A stretch of 32,000 bases of DNA from Xanthomonas campestris pv. campestris str. ATCC 33913 (lineage in GTDB: Bacteria > Pseudomonadota > Gammaproteobacteria > Xanthomonadales > Xanthomonadaceae): NCBI RefSeq assembly GCF_000007145.1, contig NC_003902.1:4793426-4825425 (forward strand), read 5' to 3'. Below are positions 4,957 to 30,585 of the stretch, piece after piece. A model generated the notes under the pieces. That model worked only from the letters and a program-made list of their open reading frames with translations, searched no databases and was not told the DNA's origin. A program made the position numbers and the translations under genes. The first letter of the stretch is position 1. Each line of letters opens with the position of its first letter.

Positions 4957-5732
4957 GCGCCTGCCTCGGCCAACCGCACCCACGCCGGTGCGTGGTCGCT
5001 GGGGCGCTCCCAGGTGCGTGGTTCGCGGTCGATGCCCGCTTCCACCGCGCGGGCGCGCAGCGCATCCGACACCAACGTCAGGTCGATGCGCAGCCCCAGG
5101 TTGCGGCGGTAGGCGGCCTGGCGGTAATCCCACCAACTGAAGTGGCCGGCATCGTCGTGATGCAGGCGAAAAGCATCGTGCAGGCCCAGCGCCAGCAGCT
5201 TGTGCAGGGCGCCGCGCTCGGCGGTGGAAGTGAGGATGTGGTTGTCGCTCCACACCTCCGGCTCGTACACGTCGCGCGCGTCCGGGGCGATGTTGAAGTC
5301 GCCCAGCACCACCAGCTGCGGGTGGCGCTGCAGCTCCTGCGCGATCCAGTCGTGCACCGCCTCGAGCCAGCGCAGCTTGTAGGCGTACTTGTCGGTGCCC
5401 ACGTCCTGGCCGTTGACCACATACAGATTGATGATGCGCACACCATCGACGGTGGCGGCGATGACGCGCTGCTGCACGTCATCGAACCCGGGGATGCCCA
5501 TCTGCACCTCCAGCGCCGGCGAGCGCGACAGGATTGCCACGCCGTTGTAGGTCTTCTGCCCGCAGAACACGCTGCGGTAGCCCAGCGCGGCCAGTGCCGC
5601 ATCCGGGAACTTGTGGTCTTCCAGCTTGGTTTCCTGGATGCCCACCACGTCCGGCGCAAAATCCGCCAGCCACTGTTGCAGGTGCGGCAGGCGCACGTTG
5701 AGCGAGTTGACGTTCCAGGAGGCAATCTTCAT
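4953..5732 (-). CDS. xthA: Exodeoxyribonuclease III
   Basis: MKIASWNVNSLNVRLPHL..GIQETKL..NGVAILSR..LGDFNIAP..SDHAPAW, full-length at 259 aa, with all ExoIII/AP-endonuclease motifs. Confidence 0.95.
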   Translation of the reverse strand: MKIASWNVNSLNVRLPHLQQWLADFAPDVVGIQETKLEDHKFPDAALAALGYRSVFCGQKTYNGVAILSRSPALEVQMGIPGFDDVQQRVIAATVDGVRIINLYVVNGQDVGTDKYAYKLRWLEAVHDWIAQELQRHPQLVVLGDFNIAPDARDVYEPEVWSDNHILTSTAERGALHKLLALGLHDAFRLHHDDAGHFSWWDYRQAAYRRNLGLRIDLTLVSDALRARAVEAGIDREPRTWERPSDHAPAWVRLAEAGA

Positions 5733-5821
5733 GGCGCGGACCGTGGTTCAAACCACCAATGGTACCGCGCCCTCGTCCATGGCCCGATCAGTCCATCCAT
5801 CCACGACGCTCAAGGCTTCCG

Positions 5822-6382
5822 TCATGGACGCGGTTTGACCACCCGGTATTGGCTGCGCTCGCCGCTGCGTGGCCCGCGCGCATCGACATTGGCGCACAAG
5901 CGGTCACCACATAGAACGACATCGCTGTTGGCCACCGCCTGCAGCACCTTGGCATCGAGCCGGTAGCGCGTCAGGTCCCGGCGCGCTTCGGTCAGCAGGT
6001 ACACACTCGAGGCACAGGCCAGCACCGTCGCAACGATCAACCCGGCGCAGGTGATCCAGGCACGGGTGAGCCACCGCCTGCGCAGCGCTTCGTGCGCGGT
6101 TTCCACCGCCTGCAAGGCCGTGCCGGAGCGCGAGATCACCGCATCCAACCGGCGCGCGGCGGGCGCGAGACTGCTATCGAGCGCCTGCTGCCAGGCCTGC
6201 TGCAGCTGCGGCACCGCGCCGCCGACCAGGCGATTGATGTCATCGCCGTTGCGCGCAGCCAGGGCGCGCAGCGCTGCCATGTCCCGCTCCAGCGCCGCAT
6301 GCTGGCGCTGGTCGCGCGCTTCGATGGTGGCAGCCAGCGTGCCCAACGCCCTGGCCAGGTCCTTCAGCTCTTCTTGGTGCAT
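5822..6382 (-). CDS. Hypothetical coiled-coil protein with one TM segment and a Cys-containing C-terminal tail (tentatively MbeB/MobB-like architecture)
   Basis: 186 aa with host-like high GC3 and the RBS ggaga 6 nt upstream of the ATG. The N-terminal 110 aa are Ala/Leu/Gln-rich and helical. A TM segment (WITCAGLIVATVLACASSVYLL) follows, then the tail VVLCGDRLCANVDARGPRSGERSQYRVVKPRP. The gene starts 60 nt downstream of the lipase gene. Confidence 0.6.
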   Translation of the reverse strand: MHQEELKDLARALGTLAATIEARDQRQHAALERDMAALRALAARNGDDINRLVGGAVPQLQQAWQQALDSSLAPAARRLDAVISRSGTALQAVETAHEALRRRWLTRAWITCAGLIVATVLACASSVYLLTEARRDLTRYRLDAKVLQAVANSDVVLCGDRLCANVDARGPRSGERSQYRVVKPRP

Positions 6383-6442
6383 CCGTCGTCTCCGTCACCG
6401 TGCATCGCCAACGCGCATCCGCCTTGCCGCACATACCGGTGC

Positions 6443-8752
6443 CTACCCGCCACCGCCGCCTCCACCACCGCCGCCCCCTCCTCCGCCATCACCGCCACCG
6501 CTATCGGCCGCGGCCATAGCCGGCCCCTGGTGCATCAGGCTCATCACGCGTACCGGCCCGTGCGCCATCTGCACATCGGCCGGCTGCATGTCGGCCGGGG
6601 TCCAGGTCACCTGGTTGGTCACCGCCTCCTGCTCGCGCTGCTGCATCAACGCCTGCCCCTCCTGCAGCAGCGCTTGCCCTTCGGGCGAATGCCGGATCCG
6701 CTCGGCCGCCTTGAATACCCCCGCCTCGTCGTGATTGCGCAGCGCCTGCAGCATCGCGTCGATGTCCGCATCGCCGGTCCGCAGCGCCGTCGGCGCGTGC
6801 GGATCCTGCTGCGCAGCCGTGCGGCCCTGGCCCAGGACCTGACGGGCCTGCTGTTCTTCCGCATCGATCCGCGCCTGCAGGCTCGGCACCACCGTCTCGG
6901 TCATCAGGTGGCGTTCCAGCGCCTCGTGCAGCGAGCGTTGGCCATGCACCGACAAGGTAGCCGTCTGCGCCACATTGCCAAGATTGTGCGGGGTGCTGGG
7001 CGTGAACCGGAGTTGGGTGGCAGCACCGGCGGCCAGTAGCGCACCTTCCAGCGCACCGGCGCTGGGCGCATGCGCGGTGAGGCCGGCGAGCGCATCGCCG
7101 CCGGCATCCAGGGTGCGATTCAGGCGACCGCCAACAGCGTCCAGCACCTGTTGCGGCAGCGCCGACGCGGTACGCACCTGATCCGCGGCGGCCGTTGCCA
7201 TGCCCGCGGCCGTGTGCATCAAGGTCTCTGCCTGCCGCGCGCCATCTTCGCGCAGCCGCGCGGCGTGCTGCTCGGCCTGCTGGCGGTCCGCCTGGGCCTG
7301 GCGCTCCAATGCCTTGGCCTGCTCCAGCAGGGCGGCCTGTGCGGTATCGGGCAACCAGCGTGCGGCACCGCGCAGTGCGACCGCGGCGGTGTCCTGCGCC
7401 TGCGCCTGGGCCTGCAACGCCCAGCGTTGCGCGCTGGCATCCAGCTCGCCGGCAACCGCACGGCCTGCGGCCAGGCCACGGCCCAGCGTGTCGCCACCGG
7501 CTTCGAGTGCTGCGCCCGTAGCGCTACCGCCATGGCGCACGGCCGCACCCCCCATCTGCATGCCGCGCGCCGCGCCGTCGCCGGCCGCATCCAGCGCCGC
7601 ATCGCCCGCCCGCCCCAGCGCGGCGCTGTGTTCGCCCAGGCCACGTCCGATCTGCGCACCGGCAGCGCCGGCCCGCAACACGCCCAACGCCGGGCCAGCC
7701 AGGTACAGGCTCTCCTGCAAGGTCAGCGCCTGCGCGCGGTCCACCAACGCGCCATCCTGGCCCTGCATCTTGGCCGGCAACACCGGCTCGATGCGGCCGG
7801 CGGCCAGCGGCAGCTGCTGCAGCAGCTGGGCGGTATCGCCCTGCGCCAGCCGGTCCACGAACGCATGCACCGCCGGCTGTGCATTCACCGGCACATCGCG
7901 GGTCAGCGCTTGGTCGAGCAAGGCCTGCCCCTCCGGCAAGCTGCGCATCAGGGTGGCGGTGTCGCCCATCACCGCCGCCAGCTGCTGGCGCCGCGCCGCA
8001 TCCAGCCGGTGGATGTTGTCCTGGATGCCGTTGTTGAGCATTTCGCCCTGGACTTGATAGGCCACGACGGTGTCGGCGGTGTCGTAGAGCTGTACACCGG
8101 GTGTGCTCTTGGCAAAACGCTGCGCAGTCGCCGGATGCAATCCTGCGGCGTTGAACGTGGTTGCCGGCACGCCACTCACCGCAGAGCCTGCCGAGCCCAT
8201 GCCGCCGCCCAGGGAATGGCCGGCAATTTCGAAGTCGACGTTCTGCAACTTTAATTGCGATGCCAAACGCATGGCACGGTCGTAGTAGTCGGTCTGCATG
8301 CCAACCGACTGCGGGAAGTTGTTGGCCAGAAAATCTTCGGCACTGGTATCGCGCAGGCCATTGGCGGTCGCGACCTCTCCCGCTGAGCCTTTGTAGACCA
8401 CGGTGGGCTTGTAGTCGGGCCCGAGGATTGCCGGATCGGGAATGTAGATTTCGGCACGGAAGCCCGAGTCGTCAGGCTTCAGGTAGTCTTTCAATCTATC
8501 CGAGCCAAGCGAGCGCAGCTCAGGAATACGGCTTTGCAGTAACTCGATGTTTTCGCTCCCACGGATCCATCCAACAGGAGAATGGCCGAGTCCCTTGGCC
8601 GAATCGTAGACATCGTCTGCAAGCGAAGCCATCTCATGCGCGTGATAGAGCTGTTGCAGCTCGGCAGCACGCGATACAGCCTCTGCTGTGCCGCTGGCAC
8701 GCAGGTCGTTCAACAGTTGCTCGCGTCGTCTGTGCAGATCTGGCGTTTGCAT
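6443..8752 (-). CDS. Large alpha/beta-hydrolase lipase/phospholipase (GHSLGG nucleophile elbow) with a long low-complexity C-terminal region and poly-Gly tail; candidate secreted toxin
   Basis: 769 aa with no N-terminal signal peptide (MQTPDLHRRREQLLNDL). Residues 40-260 are lipase_3/DUF2974-like: ASLADDVYDS, FEIAGHSLGGGMGSAGS (Ser180, nt 8213-8215), TTFNAAG. Residues 330-600 are Ala/Gly/Gln-rich. The C-terminus reads ..HSPEGQALLQEGQALMQQREQE..SGGGDGGGGGGGGGGGGGG*. Confidence 0.8.
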   Translation of the reverse strand: MQTPDLHRRREQLLNDLRASGTAEAVSRAAELQQLYHAHEMASLADDVYDSAKGLGHSPVGWIRGSENIELLQSRIPELRSLGSDRLKDYLKPDDSGFRAEIYIPDPAILGPDYKPTVVYKGSAGEVATANGLRDTSAEDFLANNFPQSVGMQTDYYDRAMRLASQLKLQNVDFEIAGHSLGGGMGSAGSAVSGVPATTFNAAGLHPATAQRFAKSTPGVQLYDTADTVVAYQVQGEMLNNGIQDNIHRLDAARRQQLAAVMGDTATLMRSLPEGQALLDQALTRDVPVNAQPAVHAFVDRLAQGDTAQLLQQLPLAAGRIEPVLPAKMQGQDGALVDRAQALTLQESLYLAGPALGVLRAGAAGAQIGRGLGEHSAALGRAGDAALDAAGDGAARGMQMGGAAVRHGGSATGAALEAGGDTLGRGLAAGRAVAGELDASAQRWALQAQAQAQDTAAVALRGAARWLPDTAQAALLEQAKALERQAQADRQQAEQHAARLREDGARQAETLMHTAAGMATAAADQVRTASALPQQVLDAVGGRLNRTLDAGGDALAGLTAHAPSAGALEGALLAAGAATQLRFTPSTPHNLGNVAQTATLSVHGQRSLHEALERHLMTETVVPSLQARIDAEEQQARQVLGQGRTAAQQDPHAPTALRTGDADIDAMLQALRNHDEAGVFKAAERIRHSPEGQALLQEGQALMQQREQEAVTNQVTWTPADMQPADVQMAHGPVRVMSLMHQGPAMAAADSGGGDGGGGGGGGGGGGGG

Positions 8753-8830
8753 GCGATCAATCCTTGCGCATGGAGGTCAAAGCAGCGGAATCTCTTTTTC
8801 TTCCGAGGGGAAGTGGAACGCCTTGCGCAT
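8742..8830. repeat. Copy A of an 89-bp duplicated block (3' end of the ankyrin gene, intergenic RBS region and first 11 nt of the lipase gene)
   Basis: It matches 9764-9852 at 88 of 89 positions. The only difference is catgGagg versus catgAagg. Confidence 0.95.
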
Positions 8831-25627: not shown

Positions 25628-26296
25628 ATGACCACCCTGCTGATTGCCGACGACCATCCCTTGTTCCGTGAAGCCTTGCGCGGGGCGGTGCAGCGGGTGA
25701 TGCCGGGGGTGGAACTGTTCGAGGCCGACAACGTGGATGCGCTGTATACCCTGGCCGATGCGCAGCCCGATGCAGACCTGTTGCTGATGGATCTCAACAT
25801 GCCGGGCGCGCAGGGATTCAGCGCGCTGGTGCATATGCGCTCGCTGCATCCGCAGCTGCCGGTGGTGGTGGTGTCTGCACGCGAAGAACCCACCGTGATG
25901 CGGCGTGCGATCGACCATGGCGCGTTCGGCTTCATCCCCAAATCCGCCGACTCGGACACCATTGGCCGCGCCCTGGCCACGGTGCTCGATGGCGAACGCT
26001 GGATTCCGGCCGAGGCACAGAACCTGCCGCCGACCGACAGCGAAGAACGTGAGGTTGGCCAGCGCCTGCGCGATCTCACCCCGCAACAATTCCGTGTGCT
26101 GCAGATGCTGGGCGCCGGCCGCCTCAACAAGCAGATCGCCTACGACCTGGGCGTGTCCGAAGCGACCATCAAGGCACACGTCACTGCCATCCTGCGCAAG
26201 CTTGGCGTGACCAATCGCACCCAGGCGGTGCTGATGGCAGGCAAGCTCGCCATCGATGCCGACGGCATCGTGCTGCCGCCGCCGGAAGACGACTGA
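25628..26296 (+). CDS. NarL/FixJ (LuxR-type HTH) response regulator, no adjacent histidine kinase
   Basis: MTTLLIADDHPLFREAL..DLLLMDLNMPG is the receiver domain with its acceptor Asp. The C-terminal HTH reads LTPQQFRVLQMLGAGRLNKQIAYDLGVSEATIKAHVTAILRKLGVTNRTQAV. 222 aa. Confidence 0.9.
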   Translation: MTTLLIADDHPLFREALRGAVQRVMPGVELFEADNVDALYTLADAQPDADLLLMDLNMPGAQGFSALVHMRSLHPQLPVVVVSAREEPTVMRRAIDHGAFGFIPKSADSDTIGRALATVLDGERWIPAEAQNLPPTDSEEREVGQRLRDLTPQQFRVLQMLGAGRLNKQIAYDLGVSEATIKAHVTAILRKLGVTNRTQAVLMAGKLAIDADGIVLPPPEDD

Positions 26297-26473: not shown

Positions 26474-26599
26474 GTTTTCTCGGCGAAGCCGCGTGTTGCA
26501 GAAGAATCCTGATGCGCGTTGGCGCGTACGACTGTGGTGGGCGTTACCGGTAAAGCTCCGTCGCGCCCGGGTACGCGCCTACATGTGGAGCTCTGCCGT

Positions 26600-27508
26600 C
26601 TAGTCAGGCGCGCGCACGAACAAGATGTTCAGATCGCGCATCGGCACGAAGTTGGCCTGCGTGAACTGGAAGGTCAGCGGGTCGATCTTTTTCAGCTCGC
26701 CCTCGAAGCACAGGCTGAGGATATCGCTGGCGGCCTGCTTGCGGATGGTCAGCTGGAAGTCCTTGATCGGGCCGTTCCAGTTCTTGCCGGTGGTGAGCAC
26801 GTAGCGCAAGTTGGCCCAGGCCAGGCCGGACTGGCCTTCGCGGCGTTGCATGCTGGTCTTGGTGCCCGGTTCAATGCAGGTGTCCTTGGCATAGGACTCC
26901 AGCAAATACGTGCTGGGCCGCGGCACGCCGGTGGACAGGCTGGGCGCATACGCATGCCGGATCTGCACGCTGCGGCGCGCCGGAAAAGCCTGTTGCCACA
27001 CGAAGTACTCGTTGAGGGTGAAACGCGGTTGCGCGTCGGCATCGACCCAACGCGCGGGCAGCGGTTTACGGCCCTTGGGTGGGGTGCCGGATTCGGTGAA
27101 GGCGGCCACATCGTCCTGGGTCCAGCCGGTGGCGGCGAACGCCTTGGAGATGTCGCTGCCGTCGTCCAGCAACACCACCAATTTGCGCGTGGTGGCGATC
27201 GGCCTGCCGTCCGCCCACAATTTGAAATCGGTGAGTTCGCTGTGGTCGGCCATGCCGAAATACATCGGCGGCATCGGGAAGGCCACCGGCACGCTGAGGT
27301 CGCGCTCGCTGTTGTTGGTGAACACGTAGTCCACCTGCACGCGCTCCTCGCTCAGGAACAGCACTTCCTTGTCCATGCTGATGTCGGGCTGGTGCAGCAA
27401 GCGGATGGTGCCGTTGTCATCGCCAAAGCTGCTGTCGTTGGCCTGCGCGCTGGCGCAGACAAGCACGGCCAGCGCCAGCAGGCGGCGTGCGGAAAAGAGC
27501 GTATGCAT
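26600..27508 (-). CDS. DUF4424-family periplasmic protein
   Basis: MHTLFSARRLLALAVLVCASAQA is a signal peptide. It is followed by NDSS..ISMDKEVLFLSEERVQVDYVFTNNSERDLSVPVAFPMPP, which matches my recollection of the DUF4424 N-terminal signature. 302 aa from the ATG at 27508. The 372-aa version in the track is an upstream extension. Confidence 0.6.
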   Translation of the reverse strand: MHTLFSARRLLALAVLVCASAQANDSSFGDDNGTIRLLHQPDISMDKEVLFLSEERVQVDYVFTNNSERDLSVPVAFPMPPMYFGMADHSELTDFKLWADGRPIATTRKLVVLLDDGSDISKAFAATGWTQDDVAAFTESGTPPKGRKPLPARWVDADAQPRFTLNEYFVWQQAFPARRSVQIRHAYAPSLSTGVPRPSTYLLESYAKDTCIEPGTKTSMQRREGQSGLAWANLRYVLTTGKNWNGPIKDFQLTIRKQAASDILSLCFEGELKKIDPLTFQFTQANFVPMRDLNILFVRAPD

Positions 27509-27887
27509 GGGTCCCCTGGTACAGCGCGCACCGACGCGCCGCAGAGCGCTAGCATGCCACGCCGTCTCCAGGCGCAGCAGACCCAAGCGCCACACCGCAG
27601 TCACTGCGCGCAAGCGGGTGCGACACGCTTGCTCACCTTTTGCCGGCCGCCGGCGAACCCACACGTTCTGCAACACGACCTGTTGGCAACGTGTGCAGCG
27701 CGCGCCAACCGCGTGCACTTGCGCAACTACCGGCTACGTCACGCTGAAAGACTGGCAAGCCCAAGCGCTGCGGCGTGATCGCTTCCACATCCAGGTGTCG
27801 CGCGCCATCGCAGTTGTCGATATCACCATTGACCATCTGCTGATGGCTGGACAAGGCTCGTGCTCACGCGATGCAGCAGGAGCACAG

Positions 27888-28478
27888 ATGGCGCGACGTT
27901 TTCCATGGCTATGGTTGGGCTTGCTGGCGGCGTGCATCCTGGTGGCGGTGCTGGCGTGGCAGAACCAGCAATTGCGCACGCAGCAACAGTGGCTGCAGAC
28001 GCGCGTGACTGCGCCCTACGCCGGCATGTACGTGCCGACCATCGCTGCCCCGGGTGTGGATGGACGCAGCTATACGTTGGGCGCCGCGCAGGGGCAGCCG
28101 CAAGTGCTGTTCTTCTTTACCACCACCTGCCCGTATTGCCGGCGCTCGGCGCCGACGGTGGTGCGTGCGGCGCGACAGTTGCAGGCCAACCTGCCGGGCC
28201 GTCCGCAGTTGCTGGGTGTCTGCCATTGCGACCCGGCGCAGGCTGCGCGCTATGCGCACGTGCATGGTTTCGATTTTCCGGTGGTCACGCTGACCGACCG
28301 CCGCGCGCTGATGCTGTTTCGGGCGCGCAATGTGCCATTGGTGATGGCCGTCGATGGGGAGGGGCGCGTGCGCCATTCCCATGTTGGCCTGTTCGATACC
28401 ACGGAGCGGGTGCAGGACCTGGTCGCCGCATTGCGCCGCACGGATGCGCCAGCGGCATTGGCAACGGTGAAGGAGTGA
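27888..28478 (+). CDS. Membrane-anchored thioredoxin-fold (TlpA/redoxin-like) thiol-disulfide oxidoreductase, active site CPYC
   Basis: The RBS aggag lies 5 nt upstream of the ATG at 27888. The anchor is MARRFPWLWLGLLAACILVAVLAW. The thioredoxin fold reads PQVLFFFTTTCPYCRRSAP..GFDFPVV..VPLVMAVDGEGRV. 196 aa. Confidence 0.8.
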   Translation: MARRFPWLWLGLLAACILVAVLAWQNQQLRTQQQWLQTRVTAPYAGMYVPTIAAPGVDGRSYTLGAAQGQPQVLFFFTTTCPYCRRSAPTVVRAARQLQANLPGRPQLLGVCHCDPAQAARYAHVHGFDFPVVTLTDRRALMLFRARNVPLVMAVDGEGRVRHSHVGLFDTTERVQDLVAALRRTDAPAALATVKE

Positions 28479-28482
28479 GTGC

Positions 28483-28686
28483 ATGAACAAGCGTTGGTTA
28501 TCTGTACGCAATGCGTTGGTGGCAGCGGCGTTCCTGGCCAGTACCGGCTTCGGCGCATTCCAAGTCATGGCAGGCAGCAACACCCAGCCGACGACCGAGG
28601 CCTGCAGCGCATGGCAATGCGCTGCCGAGTGTCCGGAATTCGGCGGCCAATTCGGGCAAGGCAACGTGTGCTATTGCTGCGGCTAA
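28483..28686 (+). CDS. Small secreted Cys-rich peptide precursor (67 aa; six Cys in the last 27 residues)
   Basis: The strong RBS aaggag lies 7 nt upstream of the ATG, which starts 4 nt after the oxidoreductase stop. Product: MNKRWLSVRNALVAAAFLASTGFGAFQVMA|GSNTQPTTEACSAWQCAAECPEFGGQFGQGNVCYCCG. The leader is Sec-like with a V-M-A cleavage motif. A terminator hairpin follows 10 nt after the stop. The gene uses several host-rare codons (tta, tct, gta, caa x3). Confidence 0.7.
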   Translation: MNKRWLSVRNALVAAAFLASTGFGAFQVMAGSNTQPTTEACSAWQCAAECPEFGGQFGQGNVCYCCG

Positions 28687-28695
28687 GCCGCCCGG

Positions 28696-28718
28696 CGGGG
28701 CCACGTGGCCCCGCTTTT
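28696..28718 (+). terminator. Rho-independent terminator after the Cys-rich peptide gene
   Basis: Stem cggggcc, loop acgt, stem ggccccg, followed by cttttcc. Confidence 0.6.
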
Positions 28719-28950
28719 CCGCACGCGGGAACTGTGCGGCGCACTGCGTGCAAGGCAGCAAGCACCTGGCCGATGTCGCATTAGACGGCGCGCGTGATGT
28801 GCGCTGTTTTTCTCGTCGTTGCAATGTAGTGACGTGCGCATGCGCTGAGTGCCTAGGTGATAGCGCTACCTAAACGTGTTCCCGCATGTCCTCGCGCATG
28901 CTGCCCACACGTGCGCATGCATCAGCAACGCATCCGCGTTCTCAGCCGCA

Positions 28951-30585
28951 TCAACCCAGCGCGCGATAGCGGAAATCACGCAGCACCACGCTGCCCTCCT
29001 GCGCGGCGTAGATGCCCAGCTGCAAGCTCAGGAAGCCGCCGAACACGTTGTGATGCATGCCGGAGACTTCCATGCGGGTGGGATGGCGCAGCCAGTTGCG
29101 GCCCTCATCGAATGAATAGTGGTAGGTCACTACCTGCTGATCGTTGGTCAGGCGCAGACGGATGTGGCGCTGCGTGTTGGGCGCGCGTGCCCACACCAGT
29201 TCTTCGGAATATTCGTAGGTCTTCATGGTGTCGGCGGTGAAGCCAATCCCGACGAACGCCTTGTGGTTGTAGAACAACAGGATGCCGCCTTCGGCATTGC
29301 CGACCAGCTCCAACGTCACCTCGGCTGCGTAGGCGCGATCGGGGACGCCGCAGGTCAGCGGTGCGCTGTCTGCCGGCGATGTGCCGGTGCAGGCCAGCGT
29401 GAGCACACGGTCGCCACGTTGGATCCGCGCCTGTTCGCCCGGCTTGGGCGCATGCAGGCTCCACTGGGTGCCGAGCTTGTCGGTGGAAAAATCATCGGAC
29501 AACGCGAAACCGGTCGCCATATTCGCACTACCGGTGGCAGTGCGCGCCGGCGTGCGCAACGGCCTGGACAGATCACCGCCGGTGGCACGGAACCAGCCAT
29601 CGGCGGTCCATTCGATCGGCTCCAGCAAGGTCTGCCGGCCCAGCGTGCGGAAGCCGTTTTCGTAGCCGTGATAGACCATCCACCAGTCGCCGCGTGGGCC
29701 TTCCACCAGCGTGGCATGGCCGCGCGACCACCACGGCTCCTGCGGTGATTGCGTGCGCACCAGTGGATTGTGCGGGCAGTGTTCCCACGGCCCATGCACC
29801 GAGCGCGAACGCGCGGCGATCACCATGTGCCCGGTCACCGGCCCGGCGGTGCCACCGACCGCGGTGACCAGATACAGCCAGCCGTTGTGCCAGTTGAGCT
29901 TGGGGCCTTCGGGCGCGAAGTTTTCCACCACCCAGTCATCCGGGTAACGCCACGGCGCGTATGCCGGTTCGAGCGGGCCGTCGGTGGCCAGGCCATCGGC
30001 GCGTAGACGGATCTTGCGGATGCCGTTGACGAACAGATAGCGCGCGCTGTCTTCGCCCACCACGTGGCCCGGGTCGATGCAGCCGGCGATCTTCAAATCG
30101 ATCGGCGCGCTCCATGGGCCACGGATGTCATCGGCCCAGATCACGAAGATCGACCAGCCGCGGTCGTCCGGATTGGCCGGGATGTAGATGAAGTAGCGGC
30201 CGTCGTGCTTGCACAGGTCCAGCGCCCAGATGGTGCCGAGCTGCTGGCGCAGGGCCGGGCCGATCGGCGTCCAGTTGACCAGGTCGGTGGAATGCCACAG
30301 CACGATGCCCGGGTAGGAGAAGAACGACGAAAACGTCATGGAGTAGTCGTCGCCATCCTTGAGGATGGTTGGGTCCGGGCGGTCGCCGGCCACGATGGGA
30401 TTGCGATAGGTGCCGTTGCCCAGATCCGCAGTGCGCTGGCCCTCGACTCCGCGCCCCCACTGCAGGAGTTGCCCGCAGGCTGCGGCCGGCGGGGCTGCGG
30501 TGGCGCCCAGCGCCGCCGGTGCCACGGCGGCACCGGCACTTGCCGCCAGCAGCTTGAATACGTCCCGCCGGGTGGGGGTTGGCAC
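28951..30585 (-). CDS. Glycoside hydrolase family 43 (beta-xylosidase/alpha-L-arabinofuranosidase type) with Tat signal and C-terminal beta-sandwich
   Basis: The GTG start gives (M)PTPTRRDVFKLLAASAGAAVAP (twin-arginine). GH43 motifs are NPIVAGDRPDPTILKDGDDYSM, LWHSTDLVNW, WALDLCKHDGRYFIY, CIDPGH and PEGPKL. 544 aa. Confidence 0.88.
   Translation of the reverse strand: MPTPTRRDVFKLLAASAGAAVAPAALGATAAPPAAACGQLLQWGRGVEGQRTADLGNGTYRNPIVAGDRPDPTILKDGDDYSMTFSSFFSYPGIVLWHSTDLVNWTPIGPALRQQLGTIWALDLCKHDGRYFIYIPANPDDRGWSIFVIWADDIRGPWSAPIDLKIAGCIDPGHVVGEDSARYLFVNGIRKIRLRADGLATDGPLEPAYAPWRYPDDWVVENFAPEGPKLNWHNGWLYLVTAVGGTAGPVTGHMVIAARSRSVHGPWEHCPHNPLVRTQSPQEPWWSRGHATLVEGPRGDWWMVYHGYENGFRTLGRQTLLEPIEWTADGWFRATGGDLSRPLRTPARTATGSANMATGFALSDDFSTDKLGTQWSLHAPKPGEQARIQRGDRVLTLACTGTSPADSAPLTCGVPDRAYAAEVTLELVGNAEGGILLFYNHKAFVGIGFTADTMKTYEYSEELVWARAPNTQRHIRLRLTNDQQVVTYHYSFDEGRNWLRHPTRMEVSGMHHNVFGGFLSLQLGIYAAQEGSVVLRDFRYRALG

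Follow-up and report, generated by a model that had tools for sequence, protein, structure and literature searches.

Why should a thioredoxin-fold protein with a predicted membrane anchor be encoded together with one small exported peptide? The question is raised by a locus of Xanthomonas campestris pv. campestris ATCC 33913, contained in a stretch of 32,000 nucleotides (contig NC_003902.1, positions 4,793,426 to 4,825,425; hereafter the window, whose own numbering is used throughout). An open reading frame (ORF) on its + strand encodes a 196-amino-acid TlpA/ResA-type thiol-disulfide oxidoreductase, as read from the sequence, and is followed by an ORF for a 67-amino-acid precursor containing six cysteines. 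A first-pass annotation of this DNA had singled out the two as a possibly uncharacterised oxidoreductase and peptide pair, and the features on which it relied, namely the ORFs, the 4-nucleotide gap, an AAGGAG seven nucleotides before the peptide ATG, the leader, the six cysteines and a CPYC active site, can all be read directly. We report that the enzyme and peptide genes, both of them real and subject to purifying selection, form a mobile two-gene module, obligately linked across genera of Lysobacteraceae. We lean, with some reserve, towards reading this module as an operon of a dedicated disulfide isomerase or proof-reader and a defensin-related peptide with vicinal cysteines. That the module exists and is conserved stands on firm ground, and the mechanism is plausible.

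The first point to settle is whether the small ORF is a gene. The enzyme gene stops with TGA at 28476-28478, and after the gap the peptide ATG stands at 28483. A scan of one genome per Xanthomonas species yielded 30 loci, the nearest to the window being that of X. maliensis. The peptide ORF was full-length with an intact start in 28 of them. In one of the other two the start codon had changed from ATG to ACG (L025), and in X. bromi (L030) only the last 17 peptide codons remained and the TlpA-like gene was lost too. Many Xanthomonas species have homologues, which the databases all call 'hypothetical protein'; their sequence is almost invariant and their six cysteines are strictly so. Pairwise ratios of non-synonymous to synonymous substitution rates (dN/dS) were 0.06-0.17, in the leader and the mature part alike, and the variable sites at codon positions 1/2/3 numbered 20/15/52. 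The Shine-Dalgarno sequence was kept as AAGGAG, AGGGAG or AAAGGAG (an (A/G)AGGAG / GAGGGAG box) in 29 Xanthomonas loci. Because the ORF is kept intact, its dN/dS is low and its cysteines are invariant, the comparison of sequences indicates that it is a genuine gene under purifying selection; the coding conservation on which the first-pass annotation had staked its proposal was thus found. The contrary explanation, a chance ORF in GC-rich DNA whose position beside the enzyme gene is an accident of Xanthomonas synteny, could draw on the many spurious ORFs that overlap this region and on genomes in which the peptide is unannotated or truncated (P0008, P0009). It is refuted by the dN/dS values, by the dominance of third-position variation, by cysteines invariant across genera and by the recurrence of the pair in unrelated contexts, and we give it practically no credence. 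The codon usage, described earlier as atypical, proved marginal, the GC content of third codon positions being 0.72 against 0.79-0.89 in the neighbouring genes on a count of 67 codons.

The second point is whether the two genes belong together. In 29 of the 30 Xanthomonas loci, all those with a full or start-mutated peptide, the TlpA-like gene adjoined the peptide on its upstream side, and the flanking DUF4424 and GH43 genes were variably intact, fragmented or deleted, the former also inverted. Look-ups started from the enzyme led to Luteimonas sp. R10, Lysobacter firmicutimachus and Vulcaniibacterium tengchongense (45-50% identity). In these three loci an ORF of 66-74 amino acids, which shares the leader and has the cysteine pattern C..C...C...CYCCG, directly followed the enzyme gene, in genomic contexts entirely unlike that of Xanthomonas, and in Luteimonas and Vulcaniibacterium the two genes overlapped by 4 nucleotides. 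Look-ups started from the peptide showed the same pairing in X. indica and in one metagenome-assembled genome (MAG), and a metagenome scan with a narrow peptide alignment gave 17 loci, all with a TlpA-like gene upstream. Two tandem peptide paralogues, of the CDCCAPE and CYCCG types, stood behind a single enzyme gene in six loci. Among more distant enzymes, a relative of 37% identity (L057/L058) was followed by a 75-amino-acid ORF with a leader of the same kind (LAFGAIQVFA) and an eight-cysteine mature part ending in GCCMCLM, and a relative of 36% identity (L035) by a homologue of that peptide. The enzyme-linked peptides of all types carried vicinal cysteines beside a further one (CYCCG, CDCCAPE, GCCMC). 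In total, 6 of the 7 look-ups begun from the enzyme revealed a partner peptide, and the widespread enzyme without a partner that the first-pass annotation had considered was not observed; its proposal of tight coupling was upheld by adjacency in every Lysobacteraceae locus examined, in differing contexts. The 4-nucleotide gap or overlap, together with the conserved Shine-Dalgarno sequence, suggests that the two genes are translationally coupled. Across the contexts examined, no transporter, immunity, regulator or metal gene was consistently linked to the pair, and PADLOC gave no defence-system match.

Some candidates from these searches were set aside. Locus L031 was a false positive, the match being the C-terminus of an ABC ATPase (EKCAAECPEF). 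The ABC exporters upstream of the pair in two lineages (L032 and L037) are not orthologous to each other and were rejected as a conserved partner, since only the generic nucleotide-binding half is shared (37% over 326 amino acids).

Further observations concern individual genomes. One 84-amino-acid protein (P0007, a single genome) joins residues ~1-34 of a LuxR-type response regulator in frame to peptide residues ~21-67. The fusion partners correspond to window positions 25628 onwards (regulator) and 28483 onwards (peptide), which implies a deletion of ~2.9 kb in which DUF4424, the TlpA-like gene and the remainder of the regulator disappeared; the loss in X. bromi is independent of it. In the MAG of L037, two proteins are encoded downstream of the pair (5496-8774), one with ankyrin repeats and one phospholipase-like, the latter bearing an XVIPCD domain. 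XVIPCD is a mark of the bacteria-killing type IV secretion effectors of Xanthomonadales, and the two proteins are probably an effector/immunity pair unrelated to the module. In the eight-cysteine lineage, a homologous protein of 400-440 amino acids with faint DUF4876 / CarboxypepD_reg similarity follows the pair in both L057 (1390-2712) and L035 (4045-5244), which may reflect either close kinship of the two genomes or a third component of the module.

The enzyme opens with a basic and then hydrophobic N-terminus, MARRFPWLWLGLLAACILVAVLAW. The hydrophobic block followed by WQN(R) is kept across the orthologue alignment, and from the anchor predicted after MARR the thioredoxin domain should face the periplasm. 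In Pfam the protein scored 39.1 bits with AhpC-TSA (cut-off 26) and 38.2 bits with Redoxin (cut-off 26.6). The closest PDB relatives were envelope thioredoxins of the ResA/Etrx/MPT53 type, at E ~1e-7 or weaker, with only ~25% identity to any solved family member. The top NCBIfam match was MauD, full-length, followed by ResA, StoA, TrbB and DsbE; identity with MauD (TIGR02661) was rejected on the score, 29.7 bits against a cut-off of 188.6, and on the lack of mau genes among the neighbours. Orthologues are named 'peroxiredoxin', 'TlpA family' or 'cytochrome c biogenesis' in the databases. A peroxiredoxin identity was likewise discarded, the active site TTTCPYCRRS being a CxxC and not the peroxidatic PxxxT/SxxC motif. 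What characterises the subfamily is GMYVP ahead of the domain, FFFTTTCPYC(R) and an invariant cis-proline.

Among 32 homologues C81, V149 and P150 (the cis-Pro loop) were invariant, and C84 nearly so, the variants of CPYC being CQYC, CKYC, CPHC, CACC and CPYS. The last of these, in which the resolving cysteine is replaced by serine, was found in Luteimonas sp. FCS-9 (P0032) and in two independent metagenome contigs (L060, L061), each time in a background with an extra CHC motif ~30 residues downstream. Such a CHC/CQC motif adjoins the active-site strand in many orthologues; it is missing from those of Lysobacter and Luteimonas, and we rejected it as a general catalytic feature of the enzyme. 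Downstream of the CPYS enzyme in L060 (2501-3311) lies a 71-amino-acid ORF whose translation is an intact six-cysteine peptide, and L061 has a 71-amino-acid ORF at the same position.

What, then, is the peptide? Its 37-residue tail, which cleavage of the leader after VMA would release as the mature peptide, is GSNTQPTTEACSAWQCAAECPEFGGQFGQGNVCYCCG. No Pfam or NCBIfam family was matched. A search of 1.84 billion representative proteins (E<=1e-3) with a profile built from 47 members of the family returned 88 relatives, nearly all of 63-75 amino acids, with six cysteines and the same leader (LGFGATQALA). These relatives fell into two classes. Class A, to which the window peptide belongs, is defined by C-x2-6-C-x3-C ... 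C-x-C-C. In class B the cysteines follow C-x3-5-C-x3-C ... G-x-C ... C-x-C, the classical framework of the cysteine-stabilised alpha/beta (CS-alpha/beta) peptides, or cis-defensins. Myxobacterial cis-defensins with the class B framework have leaders containing ..SFGATLAL.., ..SFSATQALA or ..SLGATQALA (PMC11561630, tables S2/S3), and the same leader type occurs in the published corallosins and minutusin (PMC11561630). The Pfam 'Defensin-like' model was matched by 21 of 33 class B and published mature sequences, and many of these peptides also matched gamma-thionin, arthropod defensin or scorpion-toxin models.

Several lines of evidence connect the two classes beyond the leader. A cysteine-stabilised helix motif is present in the window peptide (C46-AAE-C50 with C63-Y-C65) and is invariant in the family. 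Two intermediate sequences (P0178, P0188) read ECAPF.G.C ... CYCAG and combine the flavour of class A with the cysteine placement of class B, the GxC cysteine being kept. When the mature parts alone were aligned with hhalign, class A against class B gave a probability of 94.7% and an E of 5.8e-8, with the caveat that composition can inflate such scores for short cysteine-rich profiles. In the register of this alignment C1, C2, C3 and CxC were matched, the gamma-core cysteine of class B had no counterpart and the last cysteine of class A was extra. The AlphaFold model of the mature peptide alone has a short helix at 10-16, spanning the CxxxC region, and a hairpin of strands 25-28/32-35 ending in CxC, the mean predicted local distance difference test (pLDDT) of 70.6 indicating moderate confidence. 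The full precursor was modelled with a helix at 2-28 in the leader and a pLDDT of 62, ~55 over the mature part, which makes it unusable for the latter.

These observations suggest a defensin-related variant, a divergent relative of the bacterial cis-defensins whose membership of the family is not established. We call it a variant and not a member because the gamma-core cysteine is missing and no Pfam defensin, PDB or Foldseek match was obtained. The points that weigh against the kinship, besides the reserve attached to the alignment score and the model, are as follows. The gamma-core GxC is absent, there being no cysteine between C3 and CxC and an extra one after CxC. The Pfam CS-alpha/beta models were matched at E<=1 by none of the 47 precursors and none of the 38 mature class A sequences, a search of PDB sequences with the peptide profile gave no match, and Foldseek with the mature-only model found 0 matches in PDB.

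The leader deserves mention on its own account. Its core, (G/S)F(G/S)A(T)Q(A)(L)A, is kept from Lysobacteraceae to Myxococcota and to Longimicrobium-like contigs (P0116-P0194; PMC11561630). Conservation beyond what a generic Sec signal would need suggests a role past targeting, for example recognition by a processing or export factor.

From these elements we infer the disulfide connectivity, the redox direction, the biological target and the cleavage of the leader, and arrive at the following mechanism. The operon would produce an inner-membrane-tethered TlpA/ResA-family protein with its CPYC domain in the periplasm, and a Sec-exported peptide of ~37 residues, a divergent CS-alpha/beta relative that kept CxxxC...CxC, lost the gamma-core cysteine and acquired another right behind CxC to give CYCCG. 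One disulfide partner may have moved from the gamma-core to a position beside CxC, so that after export and cleavage the peptide would require three non-consecutive disulfides, C1-C6, C2-C4 and C3-C5. Plant defensins have a disulfide linking the N-terminus to the C-terminus, which the proposed arrangement recalls. With three cysteines in the last five residues, a general oxidant would readily make wrong pairs between neighbours. The nucleophilic first cysteine of the co-translated enzyme would attack and reshuffle, or guide, the disulfides of the peptide, the enzyme serving as dedicated isomerase, proof-reader or covalent chaperone for a vicinal-cysteine peptide.

Isomerisation is preferred to simple oxidation because the CPYS variants, which are devoid of the resolving cysteine, retain an intact six-cysteine partner. 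A monothiol thioredoxin fold has no means of storing a disulfide, which a DsbA-type oxidant needs to do, but is still able to attack disulfides and form mixed disulfides. Together with the CPYS variants, the vicinal cysteines in every enzyme-linked peptide and the class B example that was examined, which has no TlpA-like neighbour, lead us to favour a dedicated isomerase or proof-reader. Against this stand several facts. Most members of the TlpA family act as reductants that draw on DsbD/CcdA, so that the role may instead be purely reductive, keeping the peptide reduced. One distant enzyme relative (L059, 35-39% identity) has no peptide nearby. A Longimicrobium-like contig carries a closely similar CYCCG peptide with no TlpA-like neighbour within 4 kb, so that the partner is either not universally required or encoded elsewhere. 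Finally, the whole reading is computational, the transcript, the peptide and its redox state all being predicted.

If the cysteines were instead kept reduced, the peptide could be a thiol-rich periplasmic metal binder whose six thiols (CxxxC, CxCC) chelate Cu(I) or another soft metal, with the enzyme as its reductase. TlpA reduces the copper-site cysteines of ScoI and CoxB, and its family is typically reductive and linked to copper; the anionic charge and clustered cysteines of the peptide would suit such a function, and an enzyme in which an intact CxxC is not strictly required would fit thiol exchange. Yet more than seven genomic contexts contained no copper or other metal gene, metal regulator or MNIO, the peptide family alignment has no conserved His or Met, the cysteine framework aligns with a disulfide-stabilised fold, and the conserved loop (FGG / GPGGPG) and aromatic residues have the look of structural elements. 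We consider metal binding unlikely. Of the two roles proposed in the first-pass annotation, a disulfide-rich exported peptide gained support through the profile link to CS-alpha/beta defensins, and a copper buffer of the bufferin type did not; the remark that no MNIO/DUF692 maturase lies nearby held for the window and for the other contexts.

A different division of labour would make the oxidised peptide antagonistic and the enzyme its redox immunity factor, which reduces the peptide or holds it covalently in the periplasm of the producer until release. That the two genes are strictly linked, and that no further gene for immunity or export accompanies them, is compatible with this, as are the tandem paralogues, which look like toxin diversification, and the homology towards defensins, some of which are reported to be antibacterial (PMC6989792, PMC12284004). 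The enzyme-linked peptides are, however, anionic, with net charges from 0 to -7, no dedicated outer-membrane route is linked to them, the peptide is extremely conserved among Xanthomonas species instead of diversifying, and a published relative, xanthusin-1, has no antimicrobial activity (PMC11561630). A toxin with redox immunity therefore seems to us quite unlikely. A cationic antimicrobial peptide, a fast-diversifying toxin and a plant-specific mimic are disfavoured because the peptide is anionic and near-invariant, xanthusin-1 lacks antimicrobial activity and the peptide is also carried by non-pathogenic genera of soil and hot springs. A classical cationic membrane-active role is unlikely for an anionic peptide; its target may lie in antagonism or signalling.

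The relation of substrate and catalyst could also be reversed, the peptide being an accessory redox partner or regulator, such as a disulfide shuttle or inhibitory cap, of an enzyme that acts on other envelope proteins. Translational coupling would provide the two in stoichiometric amounts, CxC and CC motifs resemble shuttle disulfides, and the CHC/CQC motif lies next to the active-site strand, with CPYS found solely in that background. Related peptides are nevertheless widespread without a TlpA-like neighbour, which makes the peptide primary and the enzyme an add-on, and two peptide paralogues per enzyme suit a substrate better than a subunit. We regard this possibility as very unlikely, and retain the dedicated isomerase or proof-reader as the preferred reading.

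The coordinates of the features discussed are collected below.

Table 1. Features of the enzyme-peptide operon, in window coordinates
Feature	Coordinates	Strand	Basis or detail
Conserved upstream block, ~135 nt, probable promoter/operator	27753..27887	+	alignment of 30 Xanthomonas upstream regions
TlpA-like gene	27888..28478	+	ORF; Pfam AhpC-TSA 8.3e-10, Redoxin 1.5e-9
N-terminal hydrophobic anchor (predicted)	27900..27965	+	~residues 5-26, after MARR; visible in sequence
Active site CPYC (Cys81-Pro-Tyr-Cys84)	28128..28139	+	read from sequence
Shine-Dalgarno AAGGAG of peptide gene	28470..28475	+	within last TlpA-like codons, 7 nt to ATG
67-amino-acid precursor of exported six-cysteine peptide	28483..28686	+	ORF; stop TAA 28684-28686
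Sec-type leader, residues 1-30	28483..28572	+	basic n-region, hydrophobic core, GFGAFQVMA with -3/-1 = V, A
Predicted 37-amino-acid mature peptide, net charge -3	28573..28683	+	pattern C-x4-C-x3-C-x12-C-x-C-C-G
GC-rich hairpin GCGGGGCC-ACGT-GGCCCCGC then TTTT, probable terminator	28695..28718	+	sequence; hairpin proper 28695-28714

The conserved block upstream of the enzyme gene contains a -35-like TTGACC (27829-27834), a weak -10-like AAGGCT (27853-27858) and the AGGAG of the enzyme gene, and varies hardly at all among Xanthomonas species, as in CATCGCAGTTGTCGATATCACCATTGACCAT. In other genera TTGAC(C/G) and a -10-like CAGTAT/CACCAT are found at equal distance. Further upstream, TTGCGCAA is conserved at 27719-27726. 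A scan for the sigma-70 consensus found no promoter, Rfam gave no meaningful match in 27300-29000, and RNAalifold of the block gave no covariation support (covariation term +1.74). With no covariation for an RNA structure, we treat the block as a DNA-level element, a probable promoter/operator. It is far more conserved than a minimal promoter would need.

The terminator that the first-pass annotation assigned to the peptide gene stood in part. The GC-rich hairpin is there, the 63 nucleotides past the peptide stop fold with -33.8 kcal/mol, and GC hairpins follow the stop in most orthologous loci; the run of only four T fails the T-run rule of a strict terminator scan. The hairpin is the probable terminator of the operon.

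The pair has as its neighbours acs, a LuxR-type regulator, DUF4424, GH43 and an aldo-keto reductase. DUF4424 had been proposed as part of the same unit, together with an inverted repeat at 27659-27694. Neither suggestion survived comparison: the gene is variably deleted, decayed or inverted beside an intact pair, and the repeat sits where the sequences of different species do not align. In X. hortorum, X. arboricola and Xanthomonas sp. Leaf131 the DUF4424 segment (26611-27562; gene 26600-27508, minus strand) has the opposite orientation to that seen in the window, X. euvesicatoria and X. pisi, and in many further Xanthomonas species it is deleted or fragmented. A perfect 12-nucleotide inverted repeat, CGTGTTGCAGAA / TTCTGCAACACG, flanks it, with arms at 26492-26503 and 27666-27677 in non-alignable breakpoint zones, the right arm falling within the repeat that had been suggested as belonging to the unit. 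The flip could be a short-repeat-mediated inversion, or the repeat could be due to chance, the expectation for 1.75 kb being ~0.1 pairs of this kind. On the other side, some Xanthomonas species have a whole GH43 beta-xylosidase gene (28951-30585, minus strand); others (for example L010, L014, L017, L019, L022 and L025) have only pieces of it or none. The adjoining pair is intact, and GH43 does not belong to the unit.

Recognition of bacterial defensins is recent, and almost nothing is known of what they do or how they mature. A survey of cis-defensins reported 74 bacterial defensins, none of them in Xanthomonas or Lysobacter, and its canonical cysteine pattern would miss the family of the window peptide (PMC11561630). 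The present family would add a clade of some size, found in plant pathogens and biocontrol bacteria, whose cysteine framework is rewired, and a genetically linked, dedicated thioredoxin-fold partner that the survey does not mention. The natural CxxS variants and the tandem paralogues make the mechanism directly testable, and correctly folded defensin-like peptides from Gram-negative hosts are a possible practical outcome. More tentatively, the pair may be a minimal co-evolving cassette for a new defensin-like class, in which a disulfide migrated from the gamma-core to the C-terminus and a monothiol-capable dedicated isomerase acts through a covalent enzyme-peptide intermediate; we hold this fuller version to be doubtful. 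If true, Gram-negative bacteria would have their first folding catalyst dedicated to a peptide of the defensin type, and the pair would be a handle on the actual function of bacterial defensins.

The pair itself appears to be uncharacterised, as the first-pass annotation had supposed: the peptide is 'hypothetical' throughout the databases, and the searchable literature, including the supplements of X. euvesicatoria proteogenomics, gave no description of the peptide family or of the pairing. It can nevertheless be compared with several known systems. Bufferins, which are copper-binding peptides modified by MNIO enzymes, are likewise small Sec-exported periplasmic peptides that contain cysteines and have a linked accessory gene; unlike them, the window peptide has no MNIO/DUF692 or bufferin partner gene in any context examined. 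With TlpA, ResA, CcmG (DsbE) and Etrx the window enzyme has in common the fold family, a predicted N-terminal anchor, CxxC and the cis-Pro loop, and it differs from them by its own motifs GMYVP and FFFTTTCPYC and by having no linked cytochrome c, Cox/Sco or Msr genes. MauD is the accessory thioredoxin-like protein of methylamine dehydrogenase, whose disulfide-rich small subunit is MauA. The window enzyme resembles MauD in its predicted N-terminal anchor and thioredoxin domain, matched over the full length, and in the concept of a TlpA-like protein dedicated to one small, cysteine-dense periplasmic polypeptide. In the window, however, this partner is a 37-amino-acid peptide and not an enzyme subunit, and mau genes are lacking.

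Dedicated oxidoreductases are also found with Gram-positive bacteriocins, namely BdbA/BdbB for sublancin, PedC for pediocin PA-1 and SdbA in streptococci. The likeness consists in a thioredoxin-fold protein encoded with, or needed for, an exported peptide that contains disulfides. Those systems are Gram-positive and include dedicated ABC exporters and immunity genes, whereas the window system has two genes and would rely on Sec and the Gram-negative periplasm.

For the ancestry of the peptide, the closest parallel is offered by the cis-defensins of Myxococcota and other bacteria (corallosins, xanthusin-1, classes I-V; PMC11561630). Unlike these, the window peptide has a dedicated TlpA-like gene, the word 'thioredoxin' occurring 0 times in that survey; it has neither the cysteine of the gamma-core GxC nor the loop that precedes it, carries a vicinal cysteine after CxC (CYCCG), contains an FGG...(GPGGPG) loop and fails the canonical cysteine pattern. 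Common to both are small Sec-exported precursors with a leader of the type ..SFGATQALA / ..GFGAxQAxA, a short acidic N-terminal tail, six cysteines with CxxxC apparently paired with a C-terminal CxC, and a neutral to anionic charge.

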